DNA of 64,000 bases. It comes from an uncultured Actinomycetes bacterium. Lineage in GTDB: Bacteria > Actinomycetota > Thermoleophilia > UBA2241. The position numbers and the translations under genes were made by a program. The DNA is taken from assembly GCA_963709345.1 (NCBI GenBank), contig CAVPVX010000007.1, positions 320,001 to 384,000 of the forward strand, written 5' to 3'. Of the stretch, positions 6,247 to 55,250 are shown piece after piece. The notes under the pieces are model-generated. The model was not told where the DNA came from and ran no database searches. It worked only from the letters and a program-made list of their open reading frames with translations. Numbering within the stretch: the stretch's first letter is position 1; each line of letters starts with the position of its first letter.

Positions 6247-6735
6247 TCACGTGGCGGCGCTGAACACCAGCGACTCGGCGCCGTCGGAGCCGAACAGGGT
6301 CAGCGTGTTCCCCGCCAGGTGGACGGAGGCCGCATCCTCCAGCAGCCGCAGATAGACCGACTCCGCCTCCATGTCGGCCTCGGGGCCGGCCATCATCGTC
6401 ACGGCCGGCTTGCCGGCCGAGAAGTCGTTGCCGGGGCCGGTCGTGTACGAGCCGGAGTACGTGTTCACGGCGCTCGTCCCGGATACTTGACCGTCGGCGA
6501 AGGCCGCCGTGATCGTGAAGTCGAGGGGGTCGAGTCCACTCTCGCGCCAGCGCACGAGGGTCCACTCGGTGCCCTCCAGGTCGACGGCCTCGGGCTCGCC
6601 CGATCCGCCGCCGGTACCGTCGTCCGCCCCGTCGCCCCCGCACCCGCCGAGGCAGAACAGCGCTGCTGCCGCCGCCACGACCGCCGCGATGACGATGGCC
6701 ATCGTCACACGCCGTCTGAGCCAAGAGAGTGTCAT
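6247..6735 (-). CDS. META/HslJ-domain lipoprotein
   Basis: Lipobox LGGC; LEGTEWTL...G.S..NTYSGSY...TMMAG..E..YL..L pattern. Confidence 0.75.
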   Translation of the reverse strand: MTLSWLRRRVTMAIVIAAVVAAAAALFCLGGCGGDGADDGTGGGSGEPEAVDLEGTEWTLVRWRESGLDPLDFTITAAFADGQVSGTSAVNTYSGSYTTGPGNDFSAGKPAVTMMAGPEADMEAESVYLRLLEDAASVHLAGNTLTLFGSDGAESLVFSAAT

Positions 6736-14935: not shown

Positions 14936-16325
14936 TCAGCGGTCGGCGGCGGCCTCCAGCCCGCCGGCGGCGTCGCGCCGCGACAGCCCGAGCAGCGCCG
15001 CGATGTTCGCCTTCGCCTCTTGCGGGCTGGGATCGTGCGGGTAGGTCGTCTCCGACTCGAAGAGCCGCCCCAGCCGCCGCTCGCCGCGGACCTCGTGCAT
15101 GGTGAGCGGGTCGCTGAGGTCGGCGACCGCGACGCCGAGCGCGCCGGCCACCGTCCGCTTCGCGTCTGCCAGTCTCATGCCCTTGGCCATCTCGAGCCGC
15201 GCCACCAGATCTCCGGCGGCGCGCAGCCCGTTCATTCCCGAGGCCACGGCATGGGCGACCGGCATCCCGAAGGAGTCGCCCGACCCGACCTACAAACCGT
15301 CCAGGTGCAGGATGTCGACGCAGGCACGCGAGCACCGTGAGATCGCGTCGACGGGCGCGAATGCGTTCATGGGCACGCCGCCCACGCCCATGCCGACGTT
15401 GGCGTGCACGGGGATCTTCGCGACCGCCATGCACGGCTTCATGAAGGTGAGCGCACGAGCCGTGTTCCACGCGACTGTGCGGCTCGTGTTCACGTTGACG
15501 GCCGGCCCGAAGACGGTGGCGCCGGCCTCCTGCACCACTTCGAGCTGGCCGGCGGGCTTGAGCCCGGCCAGCCGCACGCCCTTGTACTCGAGCTGCCCGT
15601 GCGTGCCGAGCACGAACTCGCCGGACATGCCGACCATGATGCCCATGTCCGGGTACTTCGCGCGCAGCCGCTCCACGGCGAGCAGCGTCGCGAGGAAGTC
15701 GGCGTCACCGCCGGCGCCGGCGGTGTCGAAGTTGATGCCGTCGGCGCCGGCCTCCCACATCTGCCCCGCCACGTACAGCATGTCGTCGACGGCCAGCTCC
15801 ACCGCGGTTTCCTGAGCGGCGCGCGCCTCGTCGATCCGCATCGCCGGGAGCAGCTCCGACCAGTTGCCGCAGGGGCCGTCGGGCTCGGAGTAGCGCCCAA
15901 GGTCCGGCTGCGCACCGTAGTGTACCGGGATAGTGACGCGCTCCTGGGCCTCCTTCATCGCCTGCTGCTCGGAGCCGACGATGGTCTTGACGGCCTTGTA
16001 CGAGTAGTCGATGTGGTAGAGCTCGCAGGAGTCCGATGCGAAGCATTGCTCGTACTGCAGCAGAGCGTCGACCCGACTGCCCTGCTGCTGCGTGCCGGTG
16101 CCGTCGAAGCTGAGGACGACTTCGTCGCCGATGTCCACAGCACTGAAGCGCGCCGAAGTCGCGAAGATATCCAGAAGGTGCTCGAGCTCGGCGTCCTCGA
16201 GCGGCGGCGACTTGGCCCGAGCTGGCCGCCGCCTCCGTGCCCTCCTCGACCTCGGCGCGCAGCTGACTGCGCGTCAGCGCCACTCCCGAGCCGTCGCCGA
16301 GCCGTGTGATGATCGTCGCTTCCAC
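14936..16325 (-). CDS. mtbB: MtbB-family methyltransferase copy 1; Pyl amber at 15290-15292; +1 frameshift near 16220 (pseudogene or sequence error)
   Basis: TRLGDG N-terminus; DYSYK, [59 protein letters not shown]. Removing one base near 16220 puts the amber at codon 345, as in the paralogs. Confidence 0.85.
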
Positions 16326-16497: not shown

Positions 16498-16562
16498 TTG
16501 ACACTCCGGCGACGCACTCGGTATCGTGCGGGGACCATCGCGTTAGTTATGTGAACAACCAA
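16498..16562 (+). promoter_or_regulatory. promoter and putative TetR operator of mtbB copy 2
   Basis: TTGACA(16498)-18 nt-TATCGT, then GTTAGTTATGTGAACAACCAA (16542-16562), which matches the operator at 20337. Confidence 0.65.
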
Positions 16563-16601
16563 ATCCACTCGTCCAACGCCCGCGGGCGCCCGGGAGGGAC
16601 C

Positions 16602-17990
16602 ATGGCACAGCGCATCCCGACACGGCTCGGCGACGGCTCGCTCGCCGAGCTCACGCGAGCCGAGATCGAGACCGACCTGCACGCCGGGACTGAGGCGGCG
16701 GTCAAGCGAGCGAAGGTCGAGCCGCTCGCCCAGGGTGAACTCGACCACCTGCTCGACATCTTCACCTCCCCGGCCAAGTTCACCTCGGTGGACTACGGCG
16801 ACGAGGTGATCCTCGGGTTCGACGGCTCGGGCAACGCCGATCTCGGCGCGCCGATCCTCGAGCAGGTCGTCTACCAGAACCATCACGGCGCCGACATGAT
16901 CGAGCTCTGGCATCACGACTACTCGTACAAGGCCGTGCGCACGGTGCTCTCGTTCCAGACGCAGATGCTCAAGGACGCGCAGTTGCAGACGGTGATCCCG
17001 CTCAACTACGGCGCCATGCCCGACCTGGGGCGGTACTCGCAGCCCGACGGCCCCTGCCCCAACTGGTCGGAGCTCATGCCGCTGGGCAAGATCGCGGAGG
17101 CGCGGACCGCGCAGGAGGAGGCGGTCGAGCACGCCGAGCGCGACATGTGGTGCGTGGCCGAGGCGATGGTCGCCGCCGGCGCCGACGGCCTCGACTTCGA
17201 CACGGCCGGCGCGTCCGGCGACGCCGATCTGCTGGCCACACTCAACGTCACTCGGAGGATCCGTGAGACGTGGCCCGACATCGGCGTCGAGATCGGCCAG
17301 GCCGCCGAGCTCGTGCTCGGCATGCACGGTCAGCTCGAGTTCGACGGCGACCGGCTGGCCGGCCAGTGGCCGCTCGGGCAGCTCCGCGCCTGCACCGCCG
17401 CCGGCGCCACCATCTTCGGGCCGGCGGTCAATGTGAACACGACGAAGTCGCTGGCCTGGAACACCGCTCGCGCCTGCACGCTCGTGAAGCCGGTGACCGC
17501 CGAGGCCACCATCCCCGTCCACATGAACGCCGGGATGGGTGTCGGCGGCGTCCCGATGACACCGTATCCTCCGAGCGACGCCACGTCGCGCGCCTCCAAG
17601 GCGCTCGTCGACATCCTCAAGCTCGACGGGTTGTAGGTCGGCATCGGAGACCCCCTCGGGATGGCCTCCTCACACGCGCTCGCCTCGGGCATGGGCGGGA
17701 TGCGGACCGCCGGAGATCTGGTGGCCCGCATGCAGATGACCCGGGGAATGCGCCTTCCGCAGGCCAAGCAGTACGTCGCCGACAAGCTCGGCTGCTCGGT
17801 GCTCGACCTCAGCGACACCGTGGCGATGCACGACATCCGCCGCGACCTCGGCCTCGGCCGCATCCAGGTGCAGGACCTGACGTACGCCGACCACCCGGGC
17901 GCGATGGAGGCGAAGTTCCACATCGCCGACGTTCTCGGCATCCCGATCAACTCCGTGGAGTGCTTCAAAAGGCACGCCGGCGTGAAATAG
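16602..17990 (+). CDS. mtbB: MtbB-family methyltransferase copy 2, pyrrolysine-containing (amber 17634-17636), 462 aa
   Basis: Homology continues in frame through the TAG: [38 protein letters not shown]. Confidence 0.92.
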
Positions 17991-18062: not shown

Positions 18063-19533
18063 ATGGCTTCTCAGCTGGACCTCAGCACACGGCAGCCGCT
18101 GCTGCCGCTCGGCTCCGACTTCAAAGTGACGTTCTACGACGCGGCGCGTCTGGACCGCTACCGCGACGCCGTCCTGACGGTGCTCGAGCGCACCGGCGTG
18201 CGCTTCGGCTCGCCGAAGGCGCTCGCCGTCCTCGAGGAGCACGGCGCCGAGGTCGACCGCGCGTCCGGAGTCGTGCGCTTCGCGCCCGACCTCGTGGGGC
18301 GCGCGCTCGCGAGCGCCCCGCGCGACTTCTGGCTCGGCTCCCGCGACGGCACGCTCGACCTCGACCTCGCCGGCGACGAGACCTTCAACACGACCAACGG
18401 CTGCGGCACCGAGGTGATCGACTGGCGGACCGGCGTGCGCCGGCCGCCGACCAAGGACGACCTCTCGGCCATCACGCGGATGGTGGACTACCTGGGCTCG
18501 CTCCAGTTCTGGTGGCCCAACGTCGCCGCCGCCGACTGCGGCGACACCCACACCCTGCACGAGCTCGACGCGGCCTGGAACAACACGCAGAAGCACCTCC
18601 AGGGCATGGTGCAGGGCGAGCGCAAGGCGCGCTACGCGGTCGAGATGGCGACGGTGATCGCGGGAGGGGCGGAGCAGCTGCGCCGCCGCCCCCCGATGAG
18701 CGACCTCATCGGCACGGTCCAGCCGCTCGTCAACGACAAGGAAGGCATCGAGGCCGCGCTCGTGTTCGCCGCGGCCGGCATCCCCGTGTGCTTCGTGACC
18801 ATGCCCACCTACGGGACGACGGCGCCGGCGACCAAGGCCGGCGCCCTCGTGATGGGCTTCGCCGAGCTCATCAGCGCCGACGGTGTGCGTGCAGCTGGCG
18901 CATCCCGGCGCCCCGGTCATCCTCTTCCCCCTGCCGGTCCACGCCGACCCGCGCACGGCCGCGCTGGCGACGGCGCCTCTGAACCACCGCGGCCTCTTCC
19001 TGCCCGGCGAGCTCGTCCATCACTTCGGCCTGCCGTCGATGACGGGGTACGCCGGCACCGACGACGACCTGCCCGGCAGCTGGCTGGCCGCGGCGGAGAC
19101 GGCGCACACGGTCATGCTCGCCGGCATCGTCGGCTCGGAATTGATGACCACCATCGGCCTCACCAACCGGTACCAGCTGTTCACGCCCGAGCACATGATG
19201 CTCGACGACGACCTCTACCGGCGCGCGACGAGCGCGTTTCGCGACCTGGAACTGGACGAGGAGACGCTGGCGCTCGACGTCATCGACGCCGTCGGGCCCG
19301 GCGGGCACTTCCTGGGACAGCCGCACACCCGCCGTCACATGAAGGAGACCGTGGAGCGCTCGATCGGTCAGGAGATCGGCCCGGACGGCGCGCACCTGCG
19401 GGATGCGCTCGAGGTCGCGCGCGAGCGCGGCCTCGACATCCTCGAGAACTACGCGCCGGAGCCGCTGGACGCGGCCAAGGCGGCGGAACTCGCGAGGATC
19501 TGCGCCGCCGCGGACGCGGAACTGCGCGGGTAG
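18063..19533 (+). CDS. mttB: MttB-superfamily methyltransferase, non-Pyl (Gly at the Pyl site), +1 frameshift near 18878
   Basis: VLERTGVRF, TTAPATKAG, LALDVIDAVGPGGHFL.QPHT motifs. The frame switches at AELISA/TVCVQLAHPGAP; the paralog at 23919 is intact there. Confidence 0.8.
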
Positions 19534-19601
19534 GGCGGCGGGGCAGGGCGCTGAGCCACAGCCCGCGGTCGGACCGCGAGCTGCTCAGCCGAAGCCCGGG
19601 G

Positions 19602-20222
19602 TCAGTCCGGGTCGCCGCCAGACTCGACGTACCCGAACACCAGACGCCGCCAGAGATCGAAGGCGGGGCCGACGTCGAGGTCGGGGTCGGCCTGCACCTG
19701 CAAGGCGACTCCGTCGGCGATGGCCACGGTGAGCATCGCCAGCGGCTCGATGTGAGCGGGCGGCTCCTTGTCCACCGCATCCTTGAGCGCCCAGGCGTCG
19801 AGGCGTCGGTACCACTCGAAGAGGTCGCGCAGATGCGGCCGCAGGTGCTCGTCGCGGATGACGTGAGGGATGACCTCGAAGAACATGCGGTACGCATCCC
19901 GGTCTTTCGGCAGACCCTCGTGCAGGCGCATGAGCTGCGTCCGCCGCTCGTCCCCCGCCGGCACCGTCGTCAGCTGCTCGATGAGGTCCACGCTCTCCTG
20001 GTAGAGCACCGAGTCGACCAGCGCCGTAAGCAGACCCGCCTTGTTGCCGAAGTGGTAGCGGATCAGAGCGGGGTTCTCTCCGGCCTCGCGAGCGATGGTC
20101 GAGAACGTCAGCGCGCGAAACCCGTCGCGAAACAGCACGCGCTTGGCGGCGTCCAGGATGCGCACCGCCGTCGGCGGCAGATCCGGCGTTGGATCGCTTA
20201 TCGGCAGCTCGTACCTTCCCAT
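19602..20222 (-). CDS. TetR-family transcriptional regulator
   Basis: RILDAAKRVLFRDGFRALTFSTIAREAGENPALIRYHFGNKAGL HTH; divergent from the mtbB3 operon. Confidence 0.9.
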   Translation of the reverse strand: MGRYELPISDPTPDLPPTAVRILDAAKRVLFRDGFRALTFSTIAREAGENPALIRYHFGNKAGLLTALVDSVLYQESVDLIEQLTTVPAGDERRTQLMRLHEGLPKDRDAYRMFFEVIPHVIRDEHLRPHLRDLFEWYRRLDAWALKDAVDKEPPAHIEPLAMLTVAIADGVALQVQADPDLDVGPAFDLWRRLVFGYVESGGDPD

Positions 20223-20300
20223 CGCCCCGCCCCTTTCTGCACGCGCGGCGCCTCCCGGGGCGCCGGCGCCCCGGCCGGCGCCGTGCGCAAGCGCCGACGC

Positions 20301-20356
20301 TTGACAGCCTCCGGTCGTCTGCTAGTCTACCGCATCAGTTAGTTGTGTGACTAACT
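20301..20356 (+). promoter_or_regulatory. promoter and palindromic operator of the mtbB3-mttB-corrinoid operon
   Basis: TTGACA-16 nt-TAGTCT with extended -10 TG; inverted repeat AGTTAGT-TGTGTG-ACTAACT at 20337-20356. Confidence 0.7.
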
Positions 20357-20385
20357 AATCATCGCCTTCACCCTGGAGGTACCAT

Positions 20386-21783
20386 TTGGAACGGTCCGTG
20401 CGCACACGACTCGGCGACGGCTCGCTCGTCGAGATGACGCCGAGCGAGATCCGCGCCGATCTCGTCGAGGGTATGGAGCTCGGCGCCCGCCGCGCCAAGG
20501 CCCCACCGCTGAGCGAGGCCGAGATCGACCACCTGCTCGACATCTTCGCCAGCGAGGCGAAGTTCAGCGCCGTCGACATGGGCGACGAGATCGTGCTCAG
20601 CTTCGACGGCACGGGCAATCTCGACTCCGGTGCGCGCGTCGACGAGCTCTACAGCTACCAGAGCCACCGCGGCGCCGACATGCTCGAGCTCTTCTCCATC
20701 GACTACTCGTACAAGGCGATCAAGACGATCCTGAGCTACGAGACCCAGGTGATGAAGGTCGCCCAGCTCAACACGCTGGCGCCGCTGCAGTACGGCGCCA
20801 TGCCCGACCTGGGCCGCTACTCCATGCCCGACGGCCCTATCCCCAACTGGTCGGAGCTCATGCCGCTCGGCCGCATCGAGGAAGCGCGCGACGCGCAGGT
20901 GGCGGCCATCGACCATGCCGTCGCCGACATGGTCTTCGTCGCCGAGGGCATGTGGGAGGCCGGCGCCGACGGCATGGACTTCGACACCGCTGCCGCGGCC
21001 GGCGACGGCGATCTGCTTGCCACGCTCACCGCGGTCGAGAAGATCAAGCACAGGCACCCCGACTGCGGGATCGAGCTCGGGATGGCCAGCGAGTGCGTCC
21101 TCGGGATGCACGGCGAGCTCACCTACAAGGGCCGGCGCCTCGCCGGGATGTGGCCCCAGGACCAGGTCCAGGTCGCCCAGGAGGCCGGCGCCACCATCTT
21201 CGGTCCGGCGGTCAACGTCAACACGACGAAGAGCGTGGCCTGGAACGTGGCGCGCGCCTGCACGATCATCAAGCCGGCGATGGCGGTCGCCGAGATCCCC
21301 GTGCACCCGAACGTGGGCATGGGCGTCGGCGGCGTGCCGATGAGCCCCTATCCCCCAGCCGACGCCGTGTCTCGCGTCTCGCGCGCACTGGTGGACATCC
21401 TCAAGTGCGACGGGTTGTAGGTGGGCGTGGGTGACCCTCTGGGCATGGCGTGCACGCACGCGCTCGCCTCGGGCATGGGTGGAATGCGGACCGCCGGAGA
21501 TCTGGTGGGCCGCATGCAGATGACCCGGGGCATGCGCCTCAAGCAAGCCAAGACCTACGTGGCCGGCAAGCTCGGCGTCTCCGTCGCCGACCTCGCCGAC
21601 CCCATCGCCATGCACGACGTGCGCCGGGACCTCGGCCTCGGCCGCATCCCGGTGCAGGAGCTCACGTACTCGACGCACGCCGGCGCCATGGAGGCGAAGT
21701 TCCACATCGCCGAGGTGCTGGGCGTCCCGATCAACAGCGTCACGCGCTTCCAGGAGTGCGCCGGGCTGCACACCCGGGCCTGA
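20386..21783 (+). CDS. mtbB: MtbB-family methyltransferase copy 3, pyrrolysine-containing (amber 21418-21420), 465 aa
   Basis: TTG start after [39 protein letters not shown]. Confidence 0.92.
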
Positions 21784-21811
21784 TGAAGCTCACGAGCAAA
21801 GGAGGGCCGCT

Positions 21812-23281
21812 GTGAAGCGGAACCTGCACGCCGGCGGCGCCCGCAGCCGCGGGCTGAGCGTCAACGTGTTCACCGACGCCGAACTGGACGAGATCCACCT
21901 CGCCACGCTCGAGGTGCTCGAGCGCACCGGCGTCTTCGTCGAGGACGGCGAGGCGATCGACATCTTCAAGGACGGCGGCTGCCGGGTCGACCGCGAGACG
22001 CGGATGGTCCACATCCCCCCGTTCGTCACCGAGGACGCGATCCGGTCGGCGCCCAGCAGGTACACCCTGTACGGGCGCGACCCGAAGAACGACGTCGTCA
22101 TGGAGCCGGGGCGGGTCGCCTTCACGAACTTCAGCGAAGGCCTCCGCGTGATCGACCCGGAGACGGGCGAGCAGCGCGAGTCCACCAAGCAGGACATCGC
22201 CGACATCGCCCGCCTCAACGATTACCTCAGCGAGATGGACACGCACGAGATCTCCGTCGGCGCCGCGGGAGTGCCGCCGTCCACGTGCGCGGTCCACAAC
22301 AGCGAGATGCAGTTCCTCAACACCACCAAGCCGATCGGCGTCGGTCCGCTCAGCCGGCTCGAGGTCAACGCGATCTTCCGTATGGCCGCGGAGATCGTCG
22401 GCGGCGAGGACGAGCTGCGCGAGCGGCCCATCCTGTACAGCGGGGTCTGCCCCGTCAGCCCGCTCAAGCTGCCGCGCGACGTGACCGAGGTGGTCATCGA
22501 GTCGTCGCGCTGGTGGATCCCGGACAACATCCTCAGCATGGCCATGGCCGGCGGATCCAGCCCGGTCACCCTGGCCGGCTCGCTCGTCACGCACAACGCC
22601 GAGGTGCTGGCCGGCATCACGCTGGCCCAGCTCACCGAGCGCGGCTGCCCCGTCATGTACGGCAGCTCGACCACCGCCATGGACCTCAAGCTCGCAGCCG
22701 CATCCGTCGGCTCGCCGGAGATCTCGCTGATCAGCGCCGCGGTGGCGCAGATGGCGCGGCGCTACCTGCTCCCCAGCTTCGTGGCCGGGTTGTAGACGGA
22801 TTCCAAGCTCGGTGACGCGCAGGCCGGTCACGAGAAGACCCTCACCGGACTCACGGCAGCGTTGGCAGGGGCCAACCTGATCTACGGGGCGGGGATGATC
22901 GAATCGGGCGTCACCTTCGACAGTGCGCAGTTCGTGATGGACAACGAGATCGCACGCATGATCAAGCACGTGGTCGGCGGCATTCGCGTGGACGACGAAA
23001 GCCTGGCGGTGGAGGACATCGCCAAGGTCGGCGCGTTCGGCGACTTCCTGAGCCTCGACGCGACGCTGACACACATGCGCGAGCTCAGCCAGCCGACGGT
23101 GCTCGACAGGCGCGTGCGCGAAGACTGGGAGGCGCGCGGGTCGACCGACCTCTACACCCGGTGCCTCGAGACCGCGCGCGACGTCCTGCATGAGTACCGG
23201 CCCGAGCCGGTACCCAACGACGTCGCCGCACGCATCCATGCCATCGTCGAAGAGACCGACCGCGCCGCCGGCGTCGGCTGA
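21812..23281 (+). CDS. mttB: trimethylamine:corrinoid methyltransferase MttB, pyrrolysine-containing (amber 22793-22795, codon 328), 489 aa
   Basis: YLLPSFVAGL*TDSKLGDAQAGHEKT...ALAGANLIYGAGM matches the canonical Pyl-MttB AGx-O-(S/T)DxK...AGHE pattern; SMAMAGGSSPVTLAG and HNAEVLAGI motifs. Confidence 0.93.
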
Positions 23282-23292
23282 AGGAGACCCGT

Positions 23293-23919
23293 ATGAACGA
23301 CCAGCTCAAGCAGGCCATCATCGCCGGCGACGCCGATGTGGCCACCGCACTCACGACGGCGCTCCTCGCCACCGGGGCCACGGCGCGGGAGATCCTCGAC
23401 TCCGCCCTGCTCCCCGGCATGGAGGTCGTCGGCACGCGCATGCGTGACGGCGAGTGCTTCATCCCCGAGGTGCTGCTCTCCGCCCGCGTCATGCAGGCCT
23501 GCCTCGACCTGCTGCGCCCGCACATGGCCGCCGGCGACGAGGCCGGCGGCGGCGTGGTCGTGATCGGCACCGTCGAGGGCGACCTGCACGACATCGGCAA
23601 GAACCTCGTCGGCATGCTCCTGCAGGGGGCCGGCTTCACGGTCGTCAACCTCGGCACCGGGGTGACGGCGGCCGACTTCGTCGCCGCCGTCAAGGAGCAC
23701 GCGCCGAAGATCATCGGCATGAGCGCCCTGCTCACGACCACCCTGCCGCACATGGCCGAGACGATCGCCGCGCTCAAGGCCGAGGGCCTGCGCGACTCCG
23801 TCAAGGTGATGGTCGGCGGCGCCCCGGTGACCGCCGCCTACGCCGACGAGATCGGCGCCGACGGCTACGGCGCCAACGCCGGCATGGCGGTGGAGCGGGC
23901 GAAGGAGCTGGTGGGGTAG
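23293..23919 (+). CDS. methylamine-type corrinoid (B12-binding) protein, MttC/MtbC-like
   Basis: FIPEVLLSA cap domain; GTVEGDLHDIGKNLV; SALLTTT; VMVGGAPV. Terminal TAG overlaps the next GTG. Confidence 0.92.
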   Translation: MNDQLKQAIIAGDADVATALTTALLATGATAREILDSALLPGMEVVGTRMRDGECFIPEVLLSARVMQACLDLLRPHMAAGDEAGGGVVVIGTVEGDLHDIGKNLVGMLLQGAGFTVVNLGTGVTAADFVAAVKEHAPKIIGMSALLTTTLPHMAETIAALKAEGLRDSVKVMVGGAPVTAAYADEIGADGYGANAGMAVERAKELVG

Positions 23920-25412
23920 TGCCCGCGCCGCCACCCGCGGGCGCTCCTGCAGAACAGGCCGGACCGCGGCAGCAGCCGTTGGCGCCCCTGCGGTCCGACT
24001 TCCCGTGGCGCTTCCATGACGAGGCGGAAGTGGAGCCGCTACGCGAAGCGACCCTTCGGCTCCTCGAGACGACGGGCGTGCGTTTCGAGTCGCCAAAGGC
24101 GCTCGCGATCCTGAAGAGAGCCGGCGCCAGGGTGGACGAGGGTTCCGACCTCGTCCGTCTGCCTCGCCGGCTGGTCGCCGAGGCGCTCGCCCTGGCGCCG
24201 CGGCGGTTCACGCTCGGCGCCCGGGACGCCGCCTGCGACCTCGAGCTCGGCTCCAGCGCGACATACGGCACTACCGACGGCTGCGGCGTGGAGGTCGTCG
24301 ACTGGCACTCAGGCGAGCGTCGCTCGTCCACCAAGGCCGACCTCGAGGCGATCACGCGTATGCAGGACTGCCTCGGCTCCATCTGCTACTGGTGGCCCAC
24401 GGTGAGCGCCGGCGACTGCGGTGAGACGGCCCAGCTCCACGAGATCGAGGCCGGCTGGAACAACACGAGCAAGCACCTCATGGGCATGGTGCAGGGCGAG
24501 GCGCTGGCGAAGGCGGCCGTCGAGATGGCGACCACCGTGGCCGGCGGGGCCGAAGAGCTCCGCCGCCGACCTGTCATGAGCGACCTCATCGGCACGGTCT
24601 CGCCGCTCACGCACGACAAGGACGGGATCGAGGCCGGCCTGGTCTTCGCCGAGGCCGGCATCCCCGTCTGCTACGTCACCATGCCGAACCTCGGCACGAC
24701 GGCGCCGGCGACCAAGGCCGGAGCCTTCGTCGTGGGCGCCGCCGAGATCGTCGCCGCGGCGGTACTCCATGAACTCGCTTCGCCCGGCGCACCGGTGATC
24801 GGGTCGATCATGCAGATCTACGCCGACCCGCGCACGGCGCTCACCATGACATCCCCCCTCGACGACCGCTGCCGCTTCCTGGCCACGGAGCTGCTGCACA
24901 GCTTCGGCCTCCCGGCGCTCGGGCCGTTCGGCGGCACCGATGCGGCGGCGCCGGGGACATGGCTCGCCGGCGTCGAGACGATGCTCCAGTTGTTGCAGGT
25001 GCCGCTCGACGGCTGCGAGCTGTACACCGGTATCGGTCTCACCAACACGTATCAGCTGTTCACGCCCGAGGCCCTGATCCTCGACGACGATCTCTACCAC
25101 CGCGCGAGGCACGCCTTCCTCGACATCCCCATGGATGAGGAGTCGCTCGCGCTTGACGTGATCGAGGCCGTGGGTCCCGGAGGGCACTTCCTCGCCCAGC
25201 CACATACGCGCCGGCACATGCCAGACGCGGTCCTGCGCGCGGTGAGCCAGGAGATCGGCCCCGACGGCCAGCACTACCGCGACCCGGTGGAGGTGGCGCG
25301 AGAGCGCGCGCTGGCCATCCTCGAGCGCTACGTCCCGCAACCGCTGGAGGAGAACGCTCAGGCGGAACTGCGAAGGATCGTCGCAGCGGCAGACCGCGCG
25401 GTGCGCGGCTAG
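23919..25412 (+). CDS. mttB: MttB-superfamily methyltransferase, non-Pyl (Gly at the Pyl site)
   Basis: Close paralog of the 18063 gene; FGLPALGPFGGTDA aligns with the Pyl region; GPGGHFLAQPHT. Confidence 0.85.
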   Translation: MPAPPPAGAPAEQAGPRQQPLAPLRSDFPWRFHDEAEVEPLREATLRLLETTGVRFESPKALAILKRAGARVDEGSDLVRLPRRLVAEALALAPRRFTLGARDAACDLELGSSATYGTTDGCGVEVVDWHSGERRSSTKADLEAITRMQDCLGSICYWWPTVSAGDCGETAQLHEIEAGWNNTSKHLMGMVQGEALAKAAVEMATTVAGGAEELRRRPVMSDLIGTVSPLTHDKDGIEAGLVFAEAGIPVCYVTMPNLGTTAPATKAGAFVVGAAEIVAAAVLHELASPGAPVIGSIMQIYADPRTALTMTSPLDDRCRFLATELLHSFGLPALGPFGGTDAAAPGTWLAGVETMLQLLQVPLDGCELYTGIGLTNTYQLFTPEALILDDDLYHRARHAFLDIPMDEESLALDVIEAVGPGGHFLAQPHTRRHMPDAVLRAVSQEIGPDGQHYRDPVEVARERALAILERYVPQPLEENAQAELRRIVAAADRAVRG

Positions 25413-25439
25413 CGCTCGCAAGCGCCTCGCCGCCCCCGT

Positions 25440-26249
25440 CTACTCGAGCAGCATGCGGTCGACGGCGAACGCCTCGCCGGCGACCTCGTGGAACTTCTCG
25501 ACGAGGTCGCTCACCTGGAGCGCCGCCTTCTGCTCCTTGTCGATATCGAGGACGACGCGACCGCCGTGCATCATGACGAGACGGTCGCCGTAGCGCAGCG
25601 CCAGCTCCATGTTGTGCGTCACCATGAGCGTCGTGAGGCCGCGCTCGGCGATGATCGCGGCCGTGAGGTCCATGATCGTGGCCGCGACCTTTGGGTCGAG
25701 CGCGGCCGTGTGCTCGTCGAGCAGCAGGAGGCTCGGCTCGGCGATGGTCGCCATGAGCAGCGACATCGCCTGCCGCTGGCCGCCGGAGAGCTTGTTGACG
25801 CCGGCTTTGAGCCGGTCCTCCAAGCCCATACCGAGTCGTGAGAGCTGCGCGCGCATGACCTCACGGCGGCGGTGCGTCACGCCGCGACGCAGGCCGCTGC
25901 GCTTCTGGCGCATCAGCGAGATGGCGAGATTCTCCTCGATGGTCATCGACGGCGCCGTGCCGGCGCGGGGATCCTGGAACACCCTGCCGATCAGGCGACT
26001 GCGCACGTGCTCGGCCTGCCGCGTGACGTCGCGGTCACCGAGTTGGACCTTGCCGGCGCTGACGGGGAAGGTGCCGGCGACCGCGTTGAGCAGCGTCGAC
26101 TTGCCCGAGCCATTGGAGCCGATGATCGTCACGAACTGGTCCGCGGGGACGACCAGATCGATCCCGTTGAGGGCGACGACCTCGTTGGCCGTGCCGGGGA
26201 AGAACACCTTGCGCAGCCCGCTTATCTCGAGGGGAGCCGGGGCGCTCAC
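25440..26249 (-). CDS. ABC transporter ATP-binding protein
   Basis: GSNGSGKST, LSGGQRQ, LLLLDEHTAALDP motifs. Confidence 0.92.
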   Translation of the reverse strand: MSAPAPLEISGLRKVFFPGTANEVVALNGIDLVVPADQFVTIIGSNGSGKSTLLNAVAGTFPVSAGKVQLGDRDVTRQAEHVRSRLIGRVFQDPRAGTAPSMTIEENLAISLMRQKRSGLRRGVTHRRREVMRAQLSRLGMGLEDRLKAGVNKLSGGQRQAMSLLMATIAEPSLLLLDEHTAALDPKVAATIMDLTAAIIAERGLTTLMVTHNMELALRYGDRLVMMHGGRVVLDIDKEQKAALQVSDLVEKFHEVAGEAFAVDRMLLE

Positions 26250-27148
26250 AGCCGCACCACCTTGCGGCGGACGGTGGGTATGGAGAGCGCGATGACGACG
26301 AGCAGCGCCGTGAGCAGCTTGAGATCGGTGGGCGCGATGCCGAGGCGCAGGCTGATGGCTATGAGCAGCCTGTACACGATGGAGCCACCGATGACGCTGA
26401 AGAGCACCCAGCTGACACTGCGCACGCCGAAGATGACCTCGCCCATGATCACCCCGGCGAGGCCGGCGACGATCGTCCCGATACCCATGCCCACATCGGC
26501 GAAGCCCTGCTGCTGGGCGACCAGCGACCCGGTCAGGGCGACGAGCCCGTTGGCGATGGACAGCCCGACGATGCGCGTGAAGTTGGTGTTGGTGCCCATG
26601 GCCCGGATCATCTGCTCGTTGTCGCCGGTGGCCAGCAGCGTGAGCCCGAACTCCGTGTGCAGCAGCCAGTCGAGGATGTACTTGACGACGATGGCGAGCG
26701 CGGCGACGACGAGGACGACGTTCCACCCGACCATGGTGAGCGAGAACAGCGCCCCGATCTTGTCGAAGATGACCTCGACACCGAGCAGCGGGGTGTTGCT
26801 GCGCCCCATGATCCGCAGGTTGACGGTGTACAGCGCCGTCATCGTGAGGATGCCGGCGAGCAGCTTGGGACCGTAGTTGGTCGAGTTGTTGTCCCCGGAC
26901 TTGAGCAGCAGATGCAGGAAGCCGGTGACGACCCCGGCGCAAAGCCCCGCGCCCACGCCGGCGGCGGTGGCGACGAGCGGCGACTGCCCGCTCACGATGA
27001 GCGCTCCCGTGACGGCGGCTCCAAGCGGCAGACTGCCGTCGACGGTGAGGTCGGGAAAATCGAGGACGCGGAAGGTGAGGAAGACGCCGAGCACCATGAA
27101 GCAGTAGATGAGGCCCTGCTCGAGGGCGCTGGACATGATCACTTCCAC
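26246..27148 (-). CDS. ABC transporter permease (TrpY/aromatic amino acid-type family)
   Basis: FRVLDFPDLTVDGS.PLG; GFADVGMGIG; multiple transmembrane segments. Confidence 0.9.
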   Translation of the reverse strand: MEVIMSSALEQGLIYCFMVLGVFLTFRVLDFPDLTVDGSLPLGAAVTGALIVSGQSPLVATAAGVGAGLCAGVVTGFLHLLLKSGDNNSTNYGPKLLAGILTMTALYTVNLRIMGRSNTPLLGVEVIFDKIGALFSLTMVGWNVVLVVAALAIVVKYILDWLLHTEFGLTLLATGDNEQMIRAMGTNTNFTRIVGLSIANGLVALTGSLVAQQQGFADVGMGIGTIVAGLAGVIMGEVIFGVRSVSWVLFSVIGGSIVYRLLIAISLRLGIAPTDLKLLTALLVVIALSIPTVRRKVVRL

Positions 27149-40512: not shown

Positions 40513-42918
40513 CTACTTCTCGAAGACCAGGTGATCGCCGCTCACGCCCACCCGGATGGTATCCCCCTCGGTGAATGAGCCGCTGAGCAGCTCTTTCGAG
40601 AGCGGGTTCTCGATCAGCCGCTGGATGGCGCGCTTGAGCGGCCGCGCCCCGAACCGCGGATCGTACCCGGCGTTCGCGACGAAGCTACGCGCCTCCGGGG
40701 TCACCTCGAACCGCATGCCCTGGCCCTCCACCAGGCGCCGCACGTGCGTCAGCAGCAGGTCGGCGATCTGCTCGAGCGCGGCGCGGCCGAGGCCGTGGAA
40801 CACGATCGTGTCGTCGATCCGGTTCAGGAACTCCGGCCGGAAGGTCTGCCCGAGCGCCCCCATGAGCCGGCTCTCGACGGCGTCGTAGTCGCTCTCCATC
40901 TCCTCGGCGTCGGGGATGAGATCCGCGCCGACATTGCTGGTCATGATGACGACGGTGTTCTTGAAGTCGACGGTGCGGCCCTTGTTGTCGGTGAGACGGC
41001 CGTCGTCGAGCACCTGCAGCAGGATGTTGAACACGTCCGGGTGCGCCTTCTCGATCTCGTCGAAGAGCACGACGCTGTACGGGTGCCGGCGGACAGCCTC
41101 GGTGAGCTGGCCGCCCTCCTCGTAGCCCACGTAGCCGGGCGGCGAGCCGACAAGGCGACTCACGGAGAACTTCTCCATGTACTCGCTCATGTCGAGCCGC
41201 ACCATGGCGCTCTCGTCGTCGAAGAGGAACTCGGCCAGCGCCCGGGCGAGCTCGGTCTTGCCCACTCCCGTCGGGCCGAGGAAGAGGAACGAGCCGATCG
41301 GCCGCTTGGGGTCCTTGAGCCCGGCGCGGGCGCGCCGCACGGCCTCGGACACGGCGACGACCGCCTTGTCCTGGCCGATGACGCGCCCGTGCAGTCGCTC
41401 TTCCATCTGGAGGAGCTTCTCGGTCTCCTCCTCCTTCATGCGCTGCACCGGGATGCCCGTCCAGGCGCTCACGATGCCGGCGATGTCGTCGCCGCCGATC
41501 GTCGCCTCGGCGATGCCCTTGTCGGCCAGCCACGCCTCCTTGGCGGTCACGAAGGTCTGCTGGATCTTGTCGGTCTGCTCCTTGAGCTGGGCGGCACGCT
41601 CGTAGTCCTGCGCCTGCACGGCGGCAGCTCCTTCGCGCGTCAACTCCTGGAGGCGACGTTCCATGTCACGCAGATCCGGCGGCAGCATCGTCGCCTCGAT
41701 GCGCATCTTGCTGGCCGCCTCGTCGAGCAGGTCGATGGCCTTGTCGGGCAGGAAGCGGTCGCTGATGTAGCGGTCGCTGAGCACCGCCGACTCGCGGATC
41801 GCCTCGTCGGTGATCTTGACCTTGTGGTGTGCTTCGTACTTGTCGCGCAGCCCCGTGAGGATGGCGATCGTCTCCTCGACCGTCGGCTCGCCGACGAGGA
41901 CAGGCTGGAAGCGGCGCTCGAGCGCAGCGTCCTTCTCGACGTTCTCGCGGTACTCGTCGAGCGTCGTCGCGCCGACGCACTGAAGCTCGCCGCGAGCCAG
42001 CATCGGCTTCATCATGTTGGAGGCGTCCATCGCGCCCTCCGCGGCGCCGGCGCCCACCACGGTGTGGAGCTCGTCGATGAAGAGGATCACATCCTTGGAC
42101 CGCTGGATCTCGTCGAGGGCTCCCTTGAGACGCTCCTCGAATTCGCCGCGGTACTTGGCGCCGGCGACCATGGCGCCGAGGTCGAGCGCGAGCACGCGCT
42201 TACCGCGCAGCGACTCGGGAACGTCGCCGTCCACGACCTTCTGCGCCAGTCCCTCGGCGATGGCGGTCTTGCCGACGCCGGGCTCGCCGATCACGACCGG
42301 GTTGTTCTTGGTCCTGCGGCTGAGCACCTGGATGACGCGCTTGATCTCCTCGTCGCGGCCGATGACGGGGTCGAGCTTGTCGTCGGCGGCCAGCGCCGTG
42401 AGGTCACGCGTGTACTTGCCGAGCATGCTCTCGCCGGTCGCCTGGCCCTCGTAGTCGACGCCGGTGGCGCGGGTCTGCTGCAGCGCCTTCATCACGCCCT
42501 CCTCGGTCAAGCCGAGATCGCGCAGCGTCGCGCCGCCGGGCCCGTCGCCCTCGAGCATGATGCCGAGCAGAAGGTGCTCGGTGCCGATGAAGGCGTCGCC
42601 CATGGCCTGCGCCTTCTGGGCCGCGATGTCGAGTGCGGCTTTGGCCCGCGGCGTGAGGTACAGCTGGTCGGCGTCGCCGCCGGGGCCGCCGACGCGGCCC
42701 GCCCCGGCGGTCTGCAGGTAGTGGTTGGCGCGCGCCATGGCGACGCCCTTGTCGACGCCCAGCAGGCTGAACACCTGCTCGACGACGCCGCCCGGCAGAC
42801 TGAGCACGCCTATCAGCAGGTGCTCGGTGCCGAGCTGGTTGCCCGGACCGCGGCGCACGATGCCCTGCGCCGTCTCGAGCGCTTCTCGCGCCCGCTCGGA
42901 GAACCTGTTCATATCCAT
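40513..42918 (-). CDS. Hsp100/Clp AAA+ ATPase (ClpC-type middle domain, no IGF loop)
   Basis: Clp N repeats; [33 protein letters not shown]; short YERAAQLK middle domain. Confidence 0.92.
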
Positions 42919-45789: not shown

Positions 45790-47691
<1,902 letters not shown>

Positions 47692-51797: not shown

Positions 51798-52190
51798 ATG
51801 TGGACGCTCCAGGTGCGCACGCACCGGCGTGTGACCTTCACCGACATCACCCATGACGTGGCGGCGCTGGTCCGCGACCGCGGCGACGGGCTCGTCACCG
51901 TCTTCGTGCCGCACACGACCGCCGGCGTCACCATCAACGAGAACGCCGACCCCTCGGTGCGGGACGACCTGGAGATGGCCCTGGACCGCCTCGTTCCGGC
52001 CGGACTGCCTTTCACTCACCTCGAGGGCAACAGCGACGCCCACACGAAGGCCAGCCTGATGGGCAGCAGCGTCTGCGTGCCGGTGCACAACGGGGCCCTG
52101 CAACTGGGCACGTGGCAGGGCATCTACTTCGCCGAGTTCGACGGACCGCGGAGCCGGCGGACCCTGGTGACCTTCACGGCGACGGCGTAG
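51798..52190 (+). CDS. yjbQ: YjbQ/UPF0047 family protein
   Basis: HTTAGVTINENADP, EGNSDAH, LGTWQGIYFAEFDGPR motifs. Confidence 0.93.
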   Translation: MWTLQVRTHRRVTFTDITHDVAALVRDRGDGLVTVFVPHTTAGVTINENADPSVRDDLEMALDRLVPAGLPFTHLEGNSDAHTKASLMGSSVCVPVHNGALQLGTWQGIYFAEFDGPRSRRTLVTFTATA

Positions 52191-53855: not shown

Positions 53856-55250
53856 ATGCCACCGCATCCCGGAGACACCGTACGCCTGGACGTGACCTCG
53901 CTCGCCTACGGCGGGCAGGGCATCGCGCGCCTGGACGACTTCGTCGTCTTCGTGCGCGGCGGCGTGCCGGGCGACACCGTGCTGGCACGTATCACGCGCC
54001 GCAAGAAGTCGCACGCCGAGGCGAGGGCGCTGGAGATCGTCTCGCCCTCGCCCGACCGCGTGCCCCCGCGCTGCGCCCACGCCGCCACCTGCGGCGGCTG
54101 CGAGTGGCAGACGCTCGCCTACTCGAAGCAGCTCCAGTTCAAGCAGCAGCAGGTGGTCGACTCGCTGGAGCGACTGGGGCACCTGAGCGGTTTCGAGCTC
54201 GACCCCATCCTCGGCATGGACGACCCGTGGCGCTACCGCAACAAGATGGAGTTCTCGTTCGGCGCATCCGAGAGCGGCGATCTCGTGCTTGGCCTGCACA
54301 AGCGCGGCTCGTGGCGCGAGGTCGTCGACATCATCGACTGCCGCCTCGCCTCCGAGCGCATGAACGCCGCGCGCCTGGCGGTAGCGCGGGCCTGCCGGTC
54401 GCTGGAGCTCGCGCCGCATGGGCGCGACCGCAACGACCCCGCGGGCCTCCTGCGCCACCTCGTGGTGCGCGAAGGGCGCAGCAGCGGTGACCTGCTGGTC
54501 AACCTGTTCGTCACCGGGCGCTTCCCCGAAGAGGACGACCTCGTCGAGCGCGTCGTCGCCGAGAGCGGCTGCACCTCGCTCCTCCTCACGGTCAACGACT
54601 CCCCGGCGGACGCGGCCGTGGGCGACGAGCCGCTGGCCCTGCACGGCGAACCCTTCCTCCGCGAACGCCTCGCCGGGTGCGACCTGCGCGTGCCGGCGAC
54701 GGCTTTTCTCCAGACCAACAGCGCGATGTGCGAGACGCTCTACGAGACGGCGCTCCACTACGCGGATGCGGACCCCGGCCGCCCTTCCGTCGACCTGTAC
54801 TGCGGCATCGGCTCGCTGACCCTTCCGCTGGCGCGCGCGTCCCGGGAAGTCCAGGCCGTGGAGATCCAGGAGGAGGCGATCGCCGCGGCGCGCGTGAACG
54901 CGGACCTCAACGCTGTCGCCGGCGTCGGCTTCCACGCCGCCGACGTGCGCCCGCTGCTGCGCTTCCCCCCGCACCCCGTACTGGACCACGAACGCGCGAC
55001 CGCGGAGGACCGCCCGGCGGTGGTGGTCACCGATCCGCCACGGGCAGGCATGGCCCGCAAGGCGCTGCAACGCTCGGCCGCGCTCGGCGCCGAGCGCTTC
55101 GTGTACGTGTCGTGCAACCCCACGACTCTGGCCGGCAACGCCGCCGAGCTGACGGAACTGGGGTACCGACTGACGAAGGTCGCGCCCGTCGACATGTTCC
55201 CGCACACCCACCACATCGAGACCGTGGCGCTCTTCACCCAGGACGCGTAG
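53856..55250 (+). CDS. rlmD: 23S rRNA m5U1939 methyltransferase RlmD
   Basis: TRAM domain; CGGC, YRNK, FLQTN, DLYCGIG, DPPRAG, YVSCNP, DMFPHT motifs. Confidence 0.93.
   Translation: MPPHPGDTVRLDVTSLAYGGQGIARLDDFVVFVRGGVPGDTVLARITRRKKSHAEARALEIVSPSPDRVPPRCAHAATCGGCEWQTLAYSKQLQFKQQQVVDSLERLGHLSGFELDPILGMDDPWRYRNKMEFSFGASESGDLVLGLHKRGSWREVVDIIDCRLASERMNAARLAVARACRSLELAPHGRDRNDPAGLLRHLVVREGRSSGDLLVNLFVTGRFPEEDDLVERVVAESGCTSLLLTVNDSPADAAVGDEPLALHGEPFLRERLAGCDLRVPATAFLQTNSAMCETLYETALHYADADPGRPSVDLYCGIGSLTLPLARASREVQAVEIQEEAIAAARVNADLNAVAGVGFHAADVRPLLRFPPHPVLDHERATAEDRPAVVVTDPPRAGMARKALQRSAALGAERFVYVSCNPTTLAGNAAELTELGYRLTKVAPVDMFPHTHHIETVALFTQDA

Follow-up and report, generated by a model that had tools for sequence, protein, structure and literature searches.

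How can one mRNA use UAG both to insert pyrrolysine (Pyl) and to end a protein? The question is posed by a four-gene operon at positions 20386-25412 of the window, the 64,000-nucleotide stretch analysed here, which belongs to a Thermoleophilia-like soil actinobacterium of 69% GC. How Pyl can be inserted in a handful of genes when UAG ends hundreds of others has been a question for bacteria since at least 2007, when it was asked for Desulfitobacterium hafniense and the Olavius symbiont how the two meanings part (PMC1976440). It was raised again in 2021 and in 2025, and reviews name no known cis context. Dual use of UAG is already published for Pyl bacteria, 20-30% of whose stops are reported to be TAG (Prat et al. 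2012, as relayed in PMC4153887 and PMC8211752), and this operon is a further instance of that pattern. What is new here is a conserved rare codon ahead of the Pyl-UAGs, which could help to separate the two meanings, together with the conservation of a hairpin about 70-95 nt downstream.

Two meanings of UAG in one operon

The genome carries the gene set for Pyl decoding, i.e., pylT, a split pylSn/pylSc and pylBCD. ARAGORN calls a tRNA-Pyl (cta) at C11:14991-15063, whose anticodon is CUA and whose shape is of the Pyl type. PylSc reaches 318 bits against TIGR02367 (cut-off 178) and PylSn 122.5 bits against TIGR03912 (cut-off 51), while pylB (TIGR03910, 426.7 bits), pylC (TIGR03909, 279.7 bits) and pylD (TIGR03911, 213.2 bits) each exceed their own cut-off. 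Acetohalobium arabaticum and D. hafniense likewise have pylSn/pylSc, pylBCD, pylT and Pyl in both MtbB and MttB. Unlike them, the host is a GC-rich actinobacterium with many methyltransferase copies: 11 mtbB and 9 mttB genes have TAG where their family conserves Pyl. Actinobacteria provide 2 of the 81 bacterial PylRS genomes in the list given by PMC9630628.

The operon lies on the forward strand, and the sequence-only reading of the window had placed it and its four TAGs correctly throughout. The first gene, mtbB (20386..21783; TTG start, TGA stop, 465 aa), encodes a dimethylamine methyltransferase that matches Pfam Dimeth_Pyl over its full length (5.1e-165, profile positions 4-462 of 463). 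Its internal UAG (21418-21420) occupies the Pyl column of that family, which is common to the 11 genome copies and to 88 related sites; it is preceded by a UUG leucine codon (the pair spans 21415..21420) and followed by G. The second gene, mttB (21812..23281; GTG start, TGA stop, 489 aa), encodes a trimethylamine methyltransferase (MTTB profile, 1e-92). Here the internal UAG (22793-22795), again preceded by UUG (22790..22795) and followed by A, corresponds to query residue 328 and aligns with residue 334 (Pyl334) of Methanosarcina barkeri MttB (7xcm_A). Both ambers must be read through, as had been claimed, since the mtbB and mttB frames are otherwise closed. Judged by sequence conservation, TAG at the family Pyl position in 20 genome copies is above chance.

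The two remaining genes end in TAG. The third, coding for an MtbC/MtgC-like corrinoid protein (23293..23919), stops at 23917-23919 before a T, and the last G of this stop is the first base of the next start codon, GTG 23919 (TAGTG). Since the MtbC/MtgC profiles are matched as far as their ends (2-202 of 203 and 7-210 of 212), the TAG is the natural gene end. Read-through, previously estimated to add about 60 residues, would add 64, up to the TGA at 24112-24114. The fourth gene (23919..25412; TAG 25410-25412, then C) encodes a non-Pyl methyltransferase of the MttB superfamily. It lacks an internal stop and matches MTTB (1.2e-57), and its profile match reaches the last position (469 of 469). Its score of 293.5 bits falls short of the 525 bits set as cut-off for the Pyl-type equivalog; read-through would append 142 residues. 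Its GTG start is probable: AAGGAG lies 11 nt upstream and the codon overlaps the preceding TAG, although the gene caller instead picked TTG 23979. A sharper case is the second mtbB of the window (16551..17990, forward strand), where both meanings occur in a single reading frame, with an internal Pyl-TAG at 17634-17636 and a terminal TAG at 17988-17990. Induction cannot fully explain how the meanings part on one mRNA, or within this single gene, which makes the operon a clean case offered by nature.

The four genes are probably co-transcribed, since the gaps between them are short (28, 11 and -1 nt), each is preceded by a Shine-Dalgarno sequence (GGAGG 6 nt upstream of the mtbB start) and a consensus scan of 19500-26500 returned no terminator-like site. 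The gene order is preserved in 6 related loci. The same scan over the same interval returned no promoter-like site; by eye, a possible promoter can be proposed at 20301..20328 on the forward strand (TTGACA, 16 nt, TAGTCT). Between it and the mtbB ribosome-binding site lies an operator-like palindrome (20337..20356) with two perfectly matching 7-nt arms 6 nt apart, which occurs once in the genome when up to 2 mismatches are allowed and whose half-site is found nowhere else in it. A TetR/BetI-type regulator gene (19602..20165, reverse strand; TetR_N 3.4e-12, TetR_C_6 7.6e-06) is divergent from the operon. In Pyl decoding of the Acetohalobium type, transcription of the pyl genes is confined to growth on methylamines; here it is this regulator gene and the palindrome that lie beside the operon. 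Among public sequencing runs compared with 20200-25600, the best contains 0.27 of the sampled words and none contains half. The contigs that they yield over this interval are short, 85-99% alike, derived from DNA as well as RNA libraries, and come from relatives. One 225-nt contig from an RNA library (87% alike, a relative) spans the mtbB-mttB junction, but a two-gene contig is not equivalent to a single transcript, and the contigs were set aside as evidence on co-transcription, expression or habitat.

UAG as an ordinary stop in the host

Full reassignment would imply that RF1 is lost and TAG abandoned as a stop. Instead, the genome encodes RF1 (prfA equivalog, 485 bits) as well as RF2, and TAG ends 562 of the 2740 genes called in this analysis (20.5%). 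This is about as frequent as in two Pyl-negative congeners (74/323, 22.9%, and 94/361, 26.0%). Among the TAG-terminated genes are dnaK (45790-47691), a ClpB-type ATPase gene (40513-42918), rlmD (53892-55250) and yjbQ (51798-52190), for which the gene calls agree with the sequence-only reading. Backup stops are no nearer after TAG: the next TGA or TAA comes at a median of 73 codons after TAG stops vs 63 after TGA stops, and lies within 10 codons in 47/561 vs 242/2078 cases. With TAG about as common as in the congeners and backup stops no more frequent after it, UAG has not, in agreement with the earlier proposal, been reassigned across the genome. Even non-Pyl ORFs that share a directon with a Pyl gene resemble the rest of the genome (TAG in 5/30). 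At nine related loci the corrinoid gene adjoining Pyl genes ends in TGA seven times and in TAG twice, so the stop choice of this gene drifts.

Bacteria of the Acetohalobium and Desulfitobacterium type likewise keep TAG as a common stop, and face the same problem of separation. Methanosarcina acetivorans also uses UAG as stop and as Pyl, its ambiguity has been demonstrated (PMC12626013), and no cis cue is known to be required there (PMC12626013; PMC13663744). However, TAG stops are rare in Methanosarcina, about 4-5% according to PMC4153887, which they are not in the host, and termination there depends on an archaeal release factor instead of RF1.

A search for further Pyl proteins, based on coding potential on both sides of TAG, returned 11 sites, including 4 already known to be Pyl; its filter is strict and recovers just 4 of the 20 known Pyl sites. 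Three of the others are TAG-ATG gene junctions and three resemble ordinary gene ends, and were discarded. The last one is a TAG within a repeat-domain ORF. Listing the extensions that follow TAG proved of no use as a guide to read-through, as the list was swamped by neighbouring genes in the same frame.

Sequence context of the Pyl codons

The codon immediately before the Pyl-UAG (position -1) is strongly biased. In this genome it specifies Leu at 16 of the 20 Pyl sites and is UUG in all 16. Over the whole genome TTG accounts for 3.56% of Leu codons; none of the 72 codons in eight further mtbB columns with invariant Leu is TTG, and of 43 Leu codons that precede a terminal TAG, 1 is. The bias extends to relatives (73 loci), although there were fewer events than the counts suggest, because related sequences are not independent. 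Among 88 mtbB sites, 72 have Leu (71 TTG, 1 TTA) and 15 have Tyr; among 27 mttB sites, 19 have Leu (18 TTG, 1 TTA) and 8 have Ala (GCG). Over both families Leu is thus encoded by UUG in 89/91 cases, by UUA in 2/91 and never by CUN. When all conserved columns are scanned for synonymous outliers, position -1 ranks 1st of 285 in mtbB and 3rd of 339 in mttB, and the other top outliers sit within the downstream hairpins described below.

A homologue search with the protein retrieved just close relatives, which ended at the TAG (344-aa pieces), and did not reach other phyla. In metagenomes, a scan whose pattern left everything upstream of the TAG unfixed gave 116 confirmed MtbB sites, with TTG (91), ATA (14), TTA (5), CTG (4), GTA (1) and TAC (1) at -1. 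All 14 Ile codons are ATA, which elsewhere represents 10-19% of Ile codons, and in the metagenome pieces of intermediate GC content the remaining Leu codons are TTG in 15% of cases. The sole Pyl-type mtmB in 401 genomes of the phylum reads GGC-TTA-TAG-GGC. The pattern (UUG or UUA for Leu, AUA for Ile) spans non-homologous methylamine methyltransferases and GC contents from 44% to 73%. M. barkeri has other residues at -1, namely Ser in MttB and Val in MtmB. Since the residue is not universal and CTG was found four times, UUG cannot be required. The literature searched gave no upstream-codon rule for Pyl sites, and UUG, where checked, figures as a start codon. The terminal UAGs of the operon, GGG-UAG-U in the corrinoid gene and GGC-UAG-C in the fourth gene, are without the features of the Pyl sites.

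Downstream of the mtbB UAG, at 68-95 nt, a conserved RNA hairpin is predicted (21486..21513, forward strand) with a 7-bp core stem and an AGAU loop, and corresponds to the 3' hairpin in the Rfam PYLIS_2 model. Across 88 sequences, 94.2% of its cells are paired vs 83.3% after shuffling (0/500 shuffles as high), and 73 double changes vs 21 in shuffled alignments indicate covariation. Its predicted stability is -22.3 kcal/mol (z -3.41). The mttB counterpart is an invariant stretch 64-86 nt downstream (22857..22879, forward strand) with a potential 8-bp hairpin. There, 99.1% of cells are paired, but five of the eight pairs are invariant, one is compensatory in 2 of 27 sequences, covariation is almost absent and stability is ordinary (z -0.48). 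All 27 sequences keep the rare codons TTG and GCA in this stretch.

The window matches PYLIS_2 (RF02509) at 64.4 bits and PYLIS_3 (RF02510) at 71.8 bits, both above gathering, and both matches begin at the UAGs; protein-coding conservation must supply part of these scores. Of the known elements, which include the PYLIS of mtmB1, covariation here backs the 3' hairpin of PYLIS_2. The 5' stem that also belongs to this Rfam model was discounted as a conserved element, its pairing being broken in the window by 8 non-standard pairs, and the PYLIS_3 region is invariant in relatives, with little covariation. Because the models begin at the UAG, they miss the -1 codon. We know of no test of a role for the PYLIS elements in mtbB or mttB.

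Competition, context and tolerance

We give a probability of roughly 60% to the following reading: UAG is ambiguous in this host, not reassigned, RF1 and Pyl-tRNA compete for it, terminal read-through is tolerated and context probably tilts the balance. As long as the Pyl genes are expressed, RF1 and Pyl-tRNA(CUA) would contest each UAG. Read-through of the internal UAGs would be needed for active MtbB and MttB. The terminal ones would act as ordinary stops, and an occasional extension by 64 or 142 residues would be borne, not prevented, while the Pyl system is on. The contest would probably be biased by the Gly codon, the rare UUG, the purine after the UAG and the hairpin some 65-95 nt downstream. 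Several points weigh against such an effect. E. coli and Methanosarcina are held to insert Pyl without the need for a cis element (PMC8211752; PMC12626013), and it is hard to see how a hairpin 65-95 nt away from the A site could influence decoding. The mttB hairpin barely covaries and is of ordinary stability, the 5' stem of PYLIS_2 is broken in the window, the residue at -1 varies, and the counts come from sequences that are not independent. It had been argued earlier that induction cannot by itself part two meanings on one mRNA, which is sound as logic, although we infer the shared mRNA on which it depends. Of the two outcomes then offered, local context or tolerated ambiguity, the former could be served by the features specific to the Pyl sites, if these act in decoding at all, so tolerance is still likely too.

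An extreme form of tolerance, in which RF1 and Pyl-tRNA meet on equal terms at every UAG and context is irrelevant, is in our view rather unlikely. UUG and the hairpins would then serve, e.g., mRNA stability, the pace of folding or protein binding. Backup stops that are not enriched and a TAG that is not depleted fit this well, as do the ambiguous decoding in M. acetivorans without known cis cues, as reported in PMC12626013, and the differences among lineages in residue and codon at -1. Yet it leaves unexplained why a codon of 3.6% usage is nearly fixed at -1 in two non-homologous families and several GC classes, and likewise why the rare ATA is fixed where Ile precedes. One might go to the other end and assume strict targeting as in selenocysteine insertion, by a cis element and a dedicated factor, with terminal UAGs never read through. 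Bacterial SECIS/SelB offers the analogy of a stop codon that is a rare amino acid within one gene and a terminator in others. The covarying mtbB hairpin, the above-gathering matches to PYLIS_2 and PYLIS_3 and the argument by Zhang and Gladyshev (PMC1976440) that an element of this kind ought to be necessary in bacteria speak for it. However, the tests reported in PMC8211752 found none to be required. The two hairpins also have no sequence in common. Bacterial SECIS elements directly follow the UGA. Selenocysteine requires this adjoining hairpin plus its dedicated factor, whereas nothing comparable adjoins the UAGs here, and the hairpins lie 65-95 nt away. Strict targeting is therefore highly improbable.

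Two further readings would remove the problem altogether. An internal promoter or processing site might part the Pyl genes from the TAG-terminated ones, so that the four genes do not form one mRNA. Co-transcription is indeed deduced from gene layout, and the RNA-library contigs are short and from relatives, but the 28-, 11- and -1-nt gaps, the TAGTG overlap, the absence of terminator-like sites in 19500-26500 and the order kept in 6 loci make separate mRNAs improbable. Moreover, the argument from two meanings would survive such a split, because mtbB 16551-17990 has both in one frame. That translation simply ends at the internal TAGs, in genes that are broken or naturally split and with no pyrrolysine made, is hardly credible: the bare codon suggests it, but 20 copies here and 88 + 27 sites in relatives share the TAG column, coding conservation runs on past the TAG, and the genome has the full Pyl gene set.

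Within the reading of a context-biased competition, a more specific proposal can be made, if only tentatively and at less than even odds. A hitherto undescribed 5' context may mark the Pyl-UAGs, consisting of a rare P-site codon that starts with A or U and ends in a purine, with a Gly codon before it, helped by the purine at +4 and the hairpin. If true, this 5' context would tilt the contest between RF1 and Pyl-tRNA towards insertion and supply the cis cue so far lacking for both meanings of UAG to share one mRNA. The conserved UUG or AUA at -1 might provide a rule by which Pyl codons are distinguished from stops in the annotation of high-GC metagenomes, and may also matter for the design of amber-suppression sites in PylRS-based code expansion.

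Two uses of UAG in one operon and in one gene

The interval 20386-25412 is filled by four co-directional genes once TAG is taken as a residue. They are mtbB (20386-21783, +; 465 aa, Pfam Dimeth_Pyl at 5.1e-165), with an internal TAG at 21418-21420; mttB (21812-23281, +; 489 aa, MTTB at 1.1e-92), whose internal TAG at 22793-22795 matches residue 334 in an alignment to M. barkeri MttB (7xcm_A); a corrinoid protein gene with B12-binding and B12-binding_2 domains (23293-23919, +); and an MttB-family gene (MttB') without internal stop (23919-25412, +). The last two end in TAG, at 23917-23919 and 25410-25412, the former sharing its G with the following probable GTG start (TAGTG). Since the family-profile matches of both proteins extend to the final positions, these ambers are genuine termini; the extension on read-through would be 64 residues for the corrinoid protein and 142 for the last protein. 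The sequence-only reading is confirmed in all details: it had the ambers at 21418 and 22793 read through, the corrinoid gene (overlapping a GTG start) and the last gene ending in TAG, a corrinoid extension of about 60 residues, and TAG stops in dnaK, the Clp ATPase gene (ClpB-type), rlmD and yjbQ of the window, on which the gene calls agree.

The four genes probably share one transcript, to judge from intergenic gaps of 28, 11 and -1 nt, a Shine-Dalgarno sequence 6–11 nt ahead of each start, no terminator-like sites in 19500-26500, and the recurrence of the order mtbB-mttB-corrinoid(-MttB') in six related loci. Public RNA libraries yielded short contigs of relatives only. A sharper example of dual UAG than the operon is mtbB 16551-17990 (+), which has an internal Pyl-TAG at 17634-17636 and a terminal TAG at 17988-17990; both meanings therefore stand in a single reading frame, regardless of transcript structure. 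Five mtbB genes in the window match Rfam PYLIS_2 (at 15193, 17634, 21418, 28857 and 30747). A non-Pyl MttB homologue at 18120-19515 (+) is split over two frames (18120-18911 and 18892-19515), with a TAG at 19533 ending the piece; the cause is a frameshift, decay to a pseudogene or misassembly.

Pyrrolysine machinery and genome-wide stop usage

The window (C7:320001-384000) belongs to a 3.11-Mb genome (G000; 69 % G+C, 11 contigs, 98 % complete) in which tRNA-Pyl (CUA) lies at C11:14991-15063, with pylB, pylC and pylD immediately upstream and pylSn and pylSc within 4 kb. RF1 and RF2 are both present, each above its equivalog cut-off. The methylamine toolkit is very large: Pyl-TAG sites occur in 11 mtbB and 9 mttB genes (a few copies frameshifted or cut), alongside over 30 non-Pyl MttB paralogues and two MtmB-family genes that lack an internal stop. 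The closest relatives of its mtbB genes are from MAGs labelled Thermoleophilia, Actinomycetota or Actinomycetes, and PylSc turned up in 20 of the 121 genomes sampled from the class (G000 counted), 17 of them from the window's own family; a published list has two Pyl-encoding Actinobacteria (PMC9630628). A tRNA-Sec gene on contig C1 indicates that the genome may use Sec as well as Pyl. At 6638-6731 (-), adjoining tRNA-Met, ARAGORN also called a "tRNA-???" of 94 nt whose anticodon has two bases, and it called three similar ones elsewhere in the genome.

UAG is not reassigned in this genome. Our own codon-usage ORF caller gave 2758 genes, which span 83 % of the genome. It overlooks short genes and places starts only roughly, but stop codons are independent of starts. 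The stops amount to 2079 TGA, 580 TAG and 99 TAA, and after removal of 18 N-terminal halves of Pyl genes, TAG terminates 562 of 2740 genes (20.5 %). In 400-kb samples of two same-genus genomes in which no PylSc was found, the share is 74/323 (22.9 %; Fisher p 0.31) and 94/361 (26.0 %; p 0.02), hence at most a slight dip. According to PMC4153887, which cites Prat et al. 2012, TAG stops make up 20–30 % in Pyl bacteria vs about 4–5 % in Methanosarcina; our value matches the bacterial range. Backup stops are, if anything, scarcer rather than denser past TAG: the next in-frame TGA or TAA lies a median of 73 codons past TAG stops vs 63 past TGA stops, and within 10 codons in 47/561 vs 242/2078 cases. 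Together with the presence of RF1, this upholds the earlier view that UAG is not globally reassigned, for which stop usage and backup-stop distance had been among the proposed checks. In directons with a Pyl gene, TAG accounts for 5 of the 30 other stops, and in related loci the stop of corrinoid genes adjoining Pyl genes is TGA (7/9) or TAG (2/9).

One Pyl-negative congener, G402 (loci L222-L241; 1.66 Mb, one contig, 66 % GC), has 106/361 TAA stops (29 %), vs 3.6 % in G000 and 6.5 % in a further comparison genome, G355. At G000:C7:520926 (locus L218, position 901) a TAG falls within a repeat-domain ORF; coding signal flanks it on either side, and the same open frame contains a second TAG. This is a broken gene or else a Pyl of neutral origin.

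Sequence context of the pyrrolysine codons

At the 20 Pyl sites of the genome, the preceding (-1) codon is TTG in 16, GCG in three and TAC in one, so that Leu is encoded by TTG in 16/16 cases. TTG represents 3.56 % of the genome's Leu codons, 0/72 among the mtbB paralogues at the eight further columns with invariant Leu and 1/43 of Leu codons ahead of terminal TAGs; synonymous sites adjoining the -1 codon vary freely. In 73 related loci, the -1 codon is TTG 71, TAC 15, TTC 1 and TTA 1 at 88 mtbB sites and TTG 18, GCG 8 and TTA 1 at 27 TAG-bearing mttB sites, with no CTN at any of them. A metagenome contig scan with a pattern fixing only residues past the TAG sampled at least 123 loci; 116 of the 123 listed were confirmed as MtbB by profile (115 distinct). 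Among the 116 confirmed matches listed, -1 is TTG 91, ATA 14, TTA 5, CTG 4, GTA 1 and TAC 1, with ATA in 14/14 Ile cases; elsewhere in the same frames TTG forms 15 % of Leu at 45–62 % GC and 4 % above 62 % GC, and ATA 19 %, 10 % and 2 % of Ile over three GC classes. The one Pyl-type mtmB found in 401 phylum genomes reads GGC-TTA-TAG-GGC, with the gene's only TTA. The -2 residue is Gly throughout, including M. barkeri MttB and MtmB; Leu at -1 is not required, since these two proteins have Ser and Val there, respectively. A small predicted stem at 22770-22789 (columns 15–33 of mttB alignment A3) lies just 5' of the mttB GGG-UUG-UAG; its outer pair is changed on both sides in 10/27 sequences and broken in 7.

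When each conserved-residue column is scored against the gene's own synonymous usage, the top mtbB outliers (88 sequences, of which related loci supply 79 and G000 9; 285 columns) are -1 (TTG 71, TTA 1) and +26 (GGA 88/88), then +27 (GAT 56/88), and those of mttB (27 sequences, 339 columns) are +23 (TTG 27/27), +24 (GCA 27/27) and -1. For mtbB, the downstream outliers fall within a hairpin (21486-21513, 68–95 nt past the UAG) that folds at -22.3 kcal/mol (z -3.41) and pairs in 94.2 % of cells over the 88 sequences vs 83.3 % when shuffled (0/500 shuffles reach 94.2 %; double changes 73 vs 21; slid registers 28–47 %). It is the 3' hairpin of PYLIS_2, whose 5' stem is not kept in the operon mtbB. 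The downstream mttB outliers fall in a nucleotide-invariant stretch (22857-22879, 64–86 nt past the UAG) where an 8-bp hairpin is possible, with compensatory change in one pair only (2/27 sequences) and ordinary stability. The two elements have no common sequence and lie at a similar distance from the UAG. The base after Pyl-TAG is G 16 and A 2 at 18 called sites, a purine excess owed in part to the conserved next residue; terminal TAGs are followed by C (39 %), G (31 %), A (21 %) or T (9 %). The operon's terminal contexts are GGG-UAG-U (corrinoid gene) and GGC-UAG-C (last gene).

Proposed competition at UAG and probable control of the operon

The operon's dual UAG use is an already-known phenomenon and not new in kind, as it is published for Pyl bacteria and M. 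acetivorans. Zhang and Gladyshev 2007 (PMC1976440) describe it in Pyl bacteria, argue for some cis cue and report that a search for downstream and UTR structures found none shared by D. hafniense and the symbiont of Olavius; a 2021 review calls the question open, with no context known (PMC8211752); and ambiguous decoding is demonstrated in M. acetivorans (PMC12626013; PMC13663744). Have et al. 2013 state that upstream elements were outside their consideration (PMC3639795). The literature searched does not mention an upstream-codon bias.

Most likely, switching on the Pyl genes sets RF1 against Pyl-tRNA at every UAG. The methyltransferases would need merely a workable share of read-through, and truncated or extended by-products would be borne. 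Where read-through pays, the conserved -1 codon and the +4 purine would tilt the odds, perhaps with the hairpin as well. UUG and AUA might be favoured as codons of minor tRNAs with weak codon-anticodon pairing adjoining the A site; in E. coli, the P-site tRNA affects RF1 termination. GCG and the disfavoured CUG at -1 fit no simple rule.

A TetR/BetI-type regulator gene (19602-20165, -) diverges from the operon, and a perfect 7-6-7 palindrome, single-copy in the genome, occupies 20337-20356 between a candidate promoter picked by eye and the mtbB ribosome-binding site; the two are likely a repressor-operator pair for this operon alone. At the other end, 67 nt past the last TAG and within the 3' end of a convergent ABC ATPase gene, a strong hairpin at 25479-25511 (+; -23.6 kcal/mol, z -3.96) may act as a terminator without a U tract.
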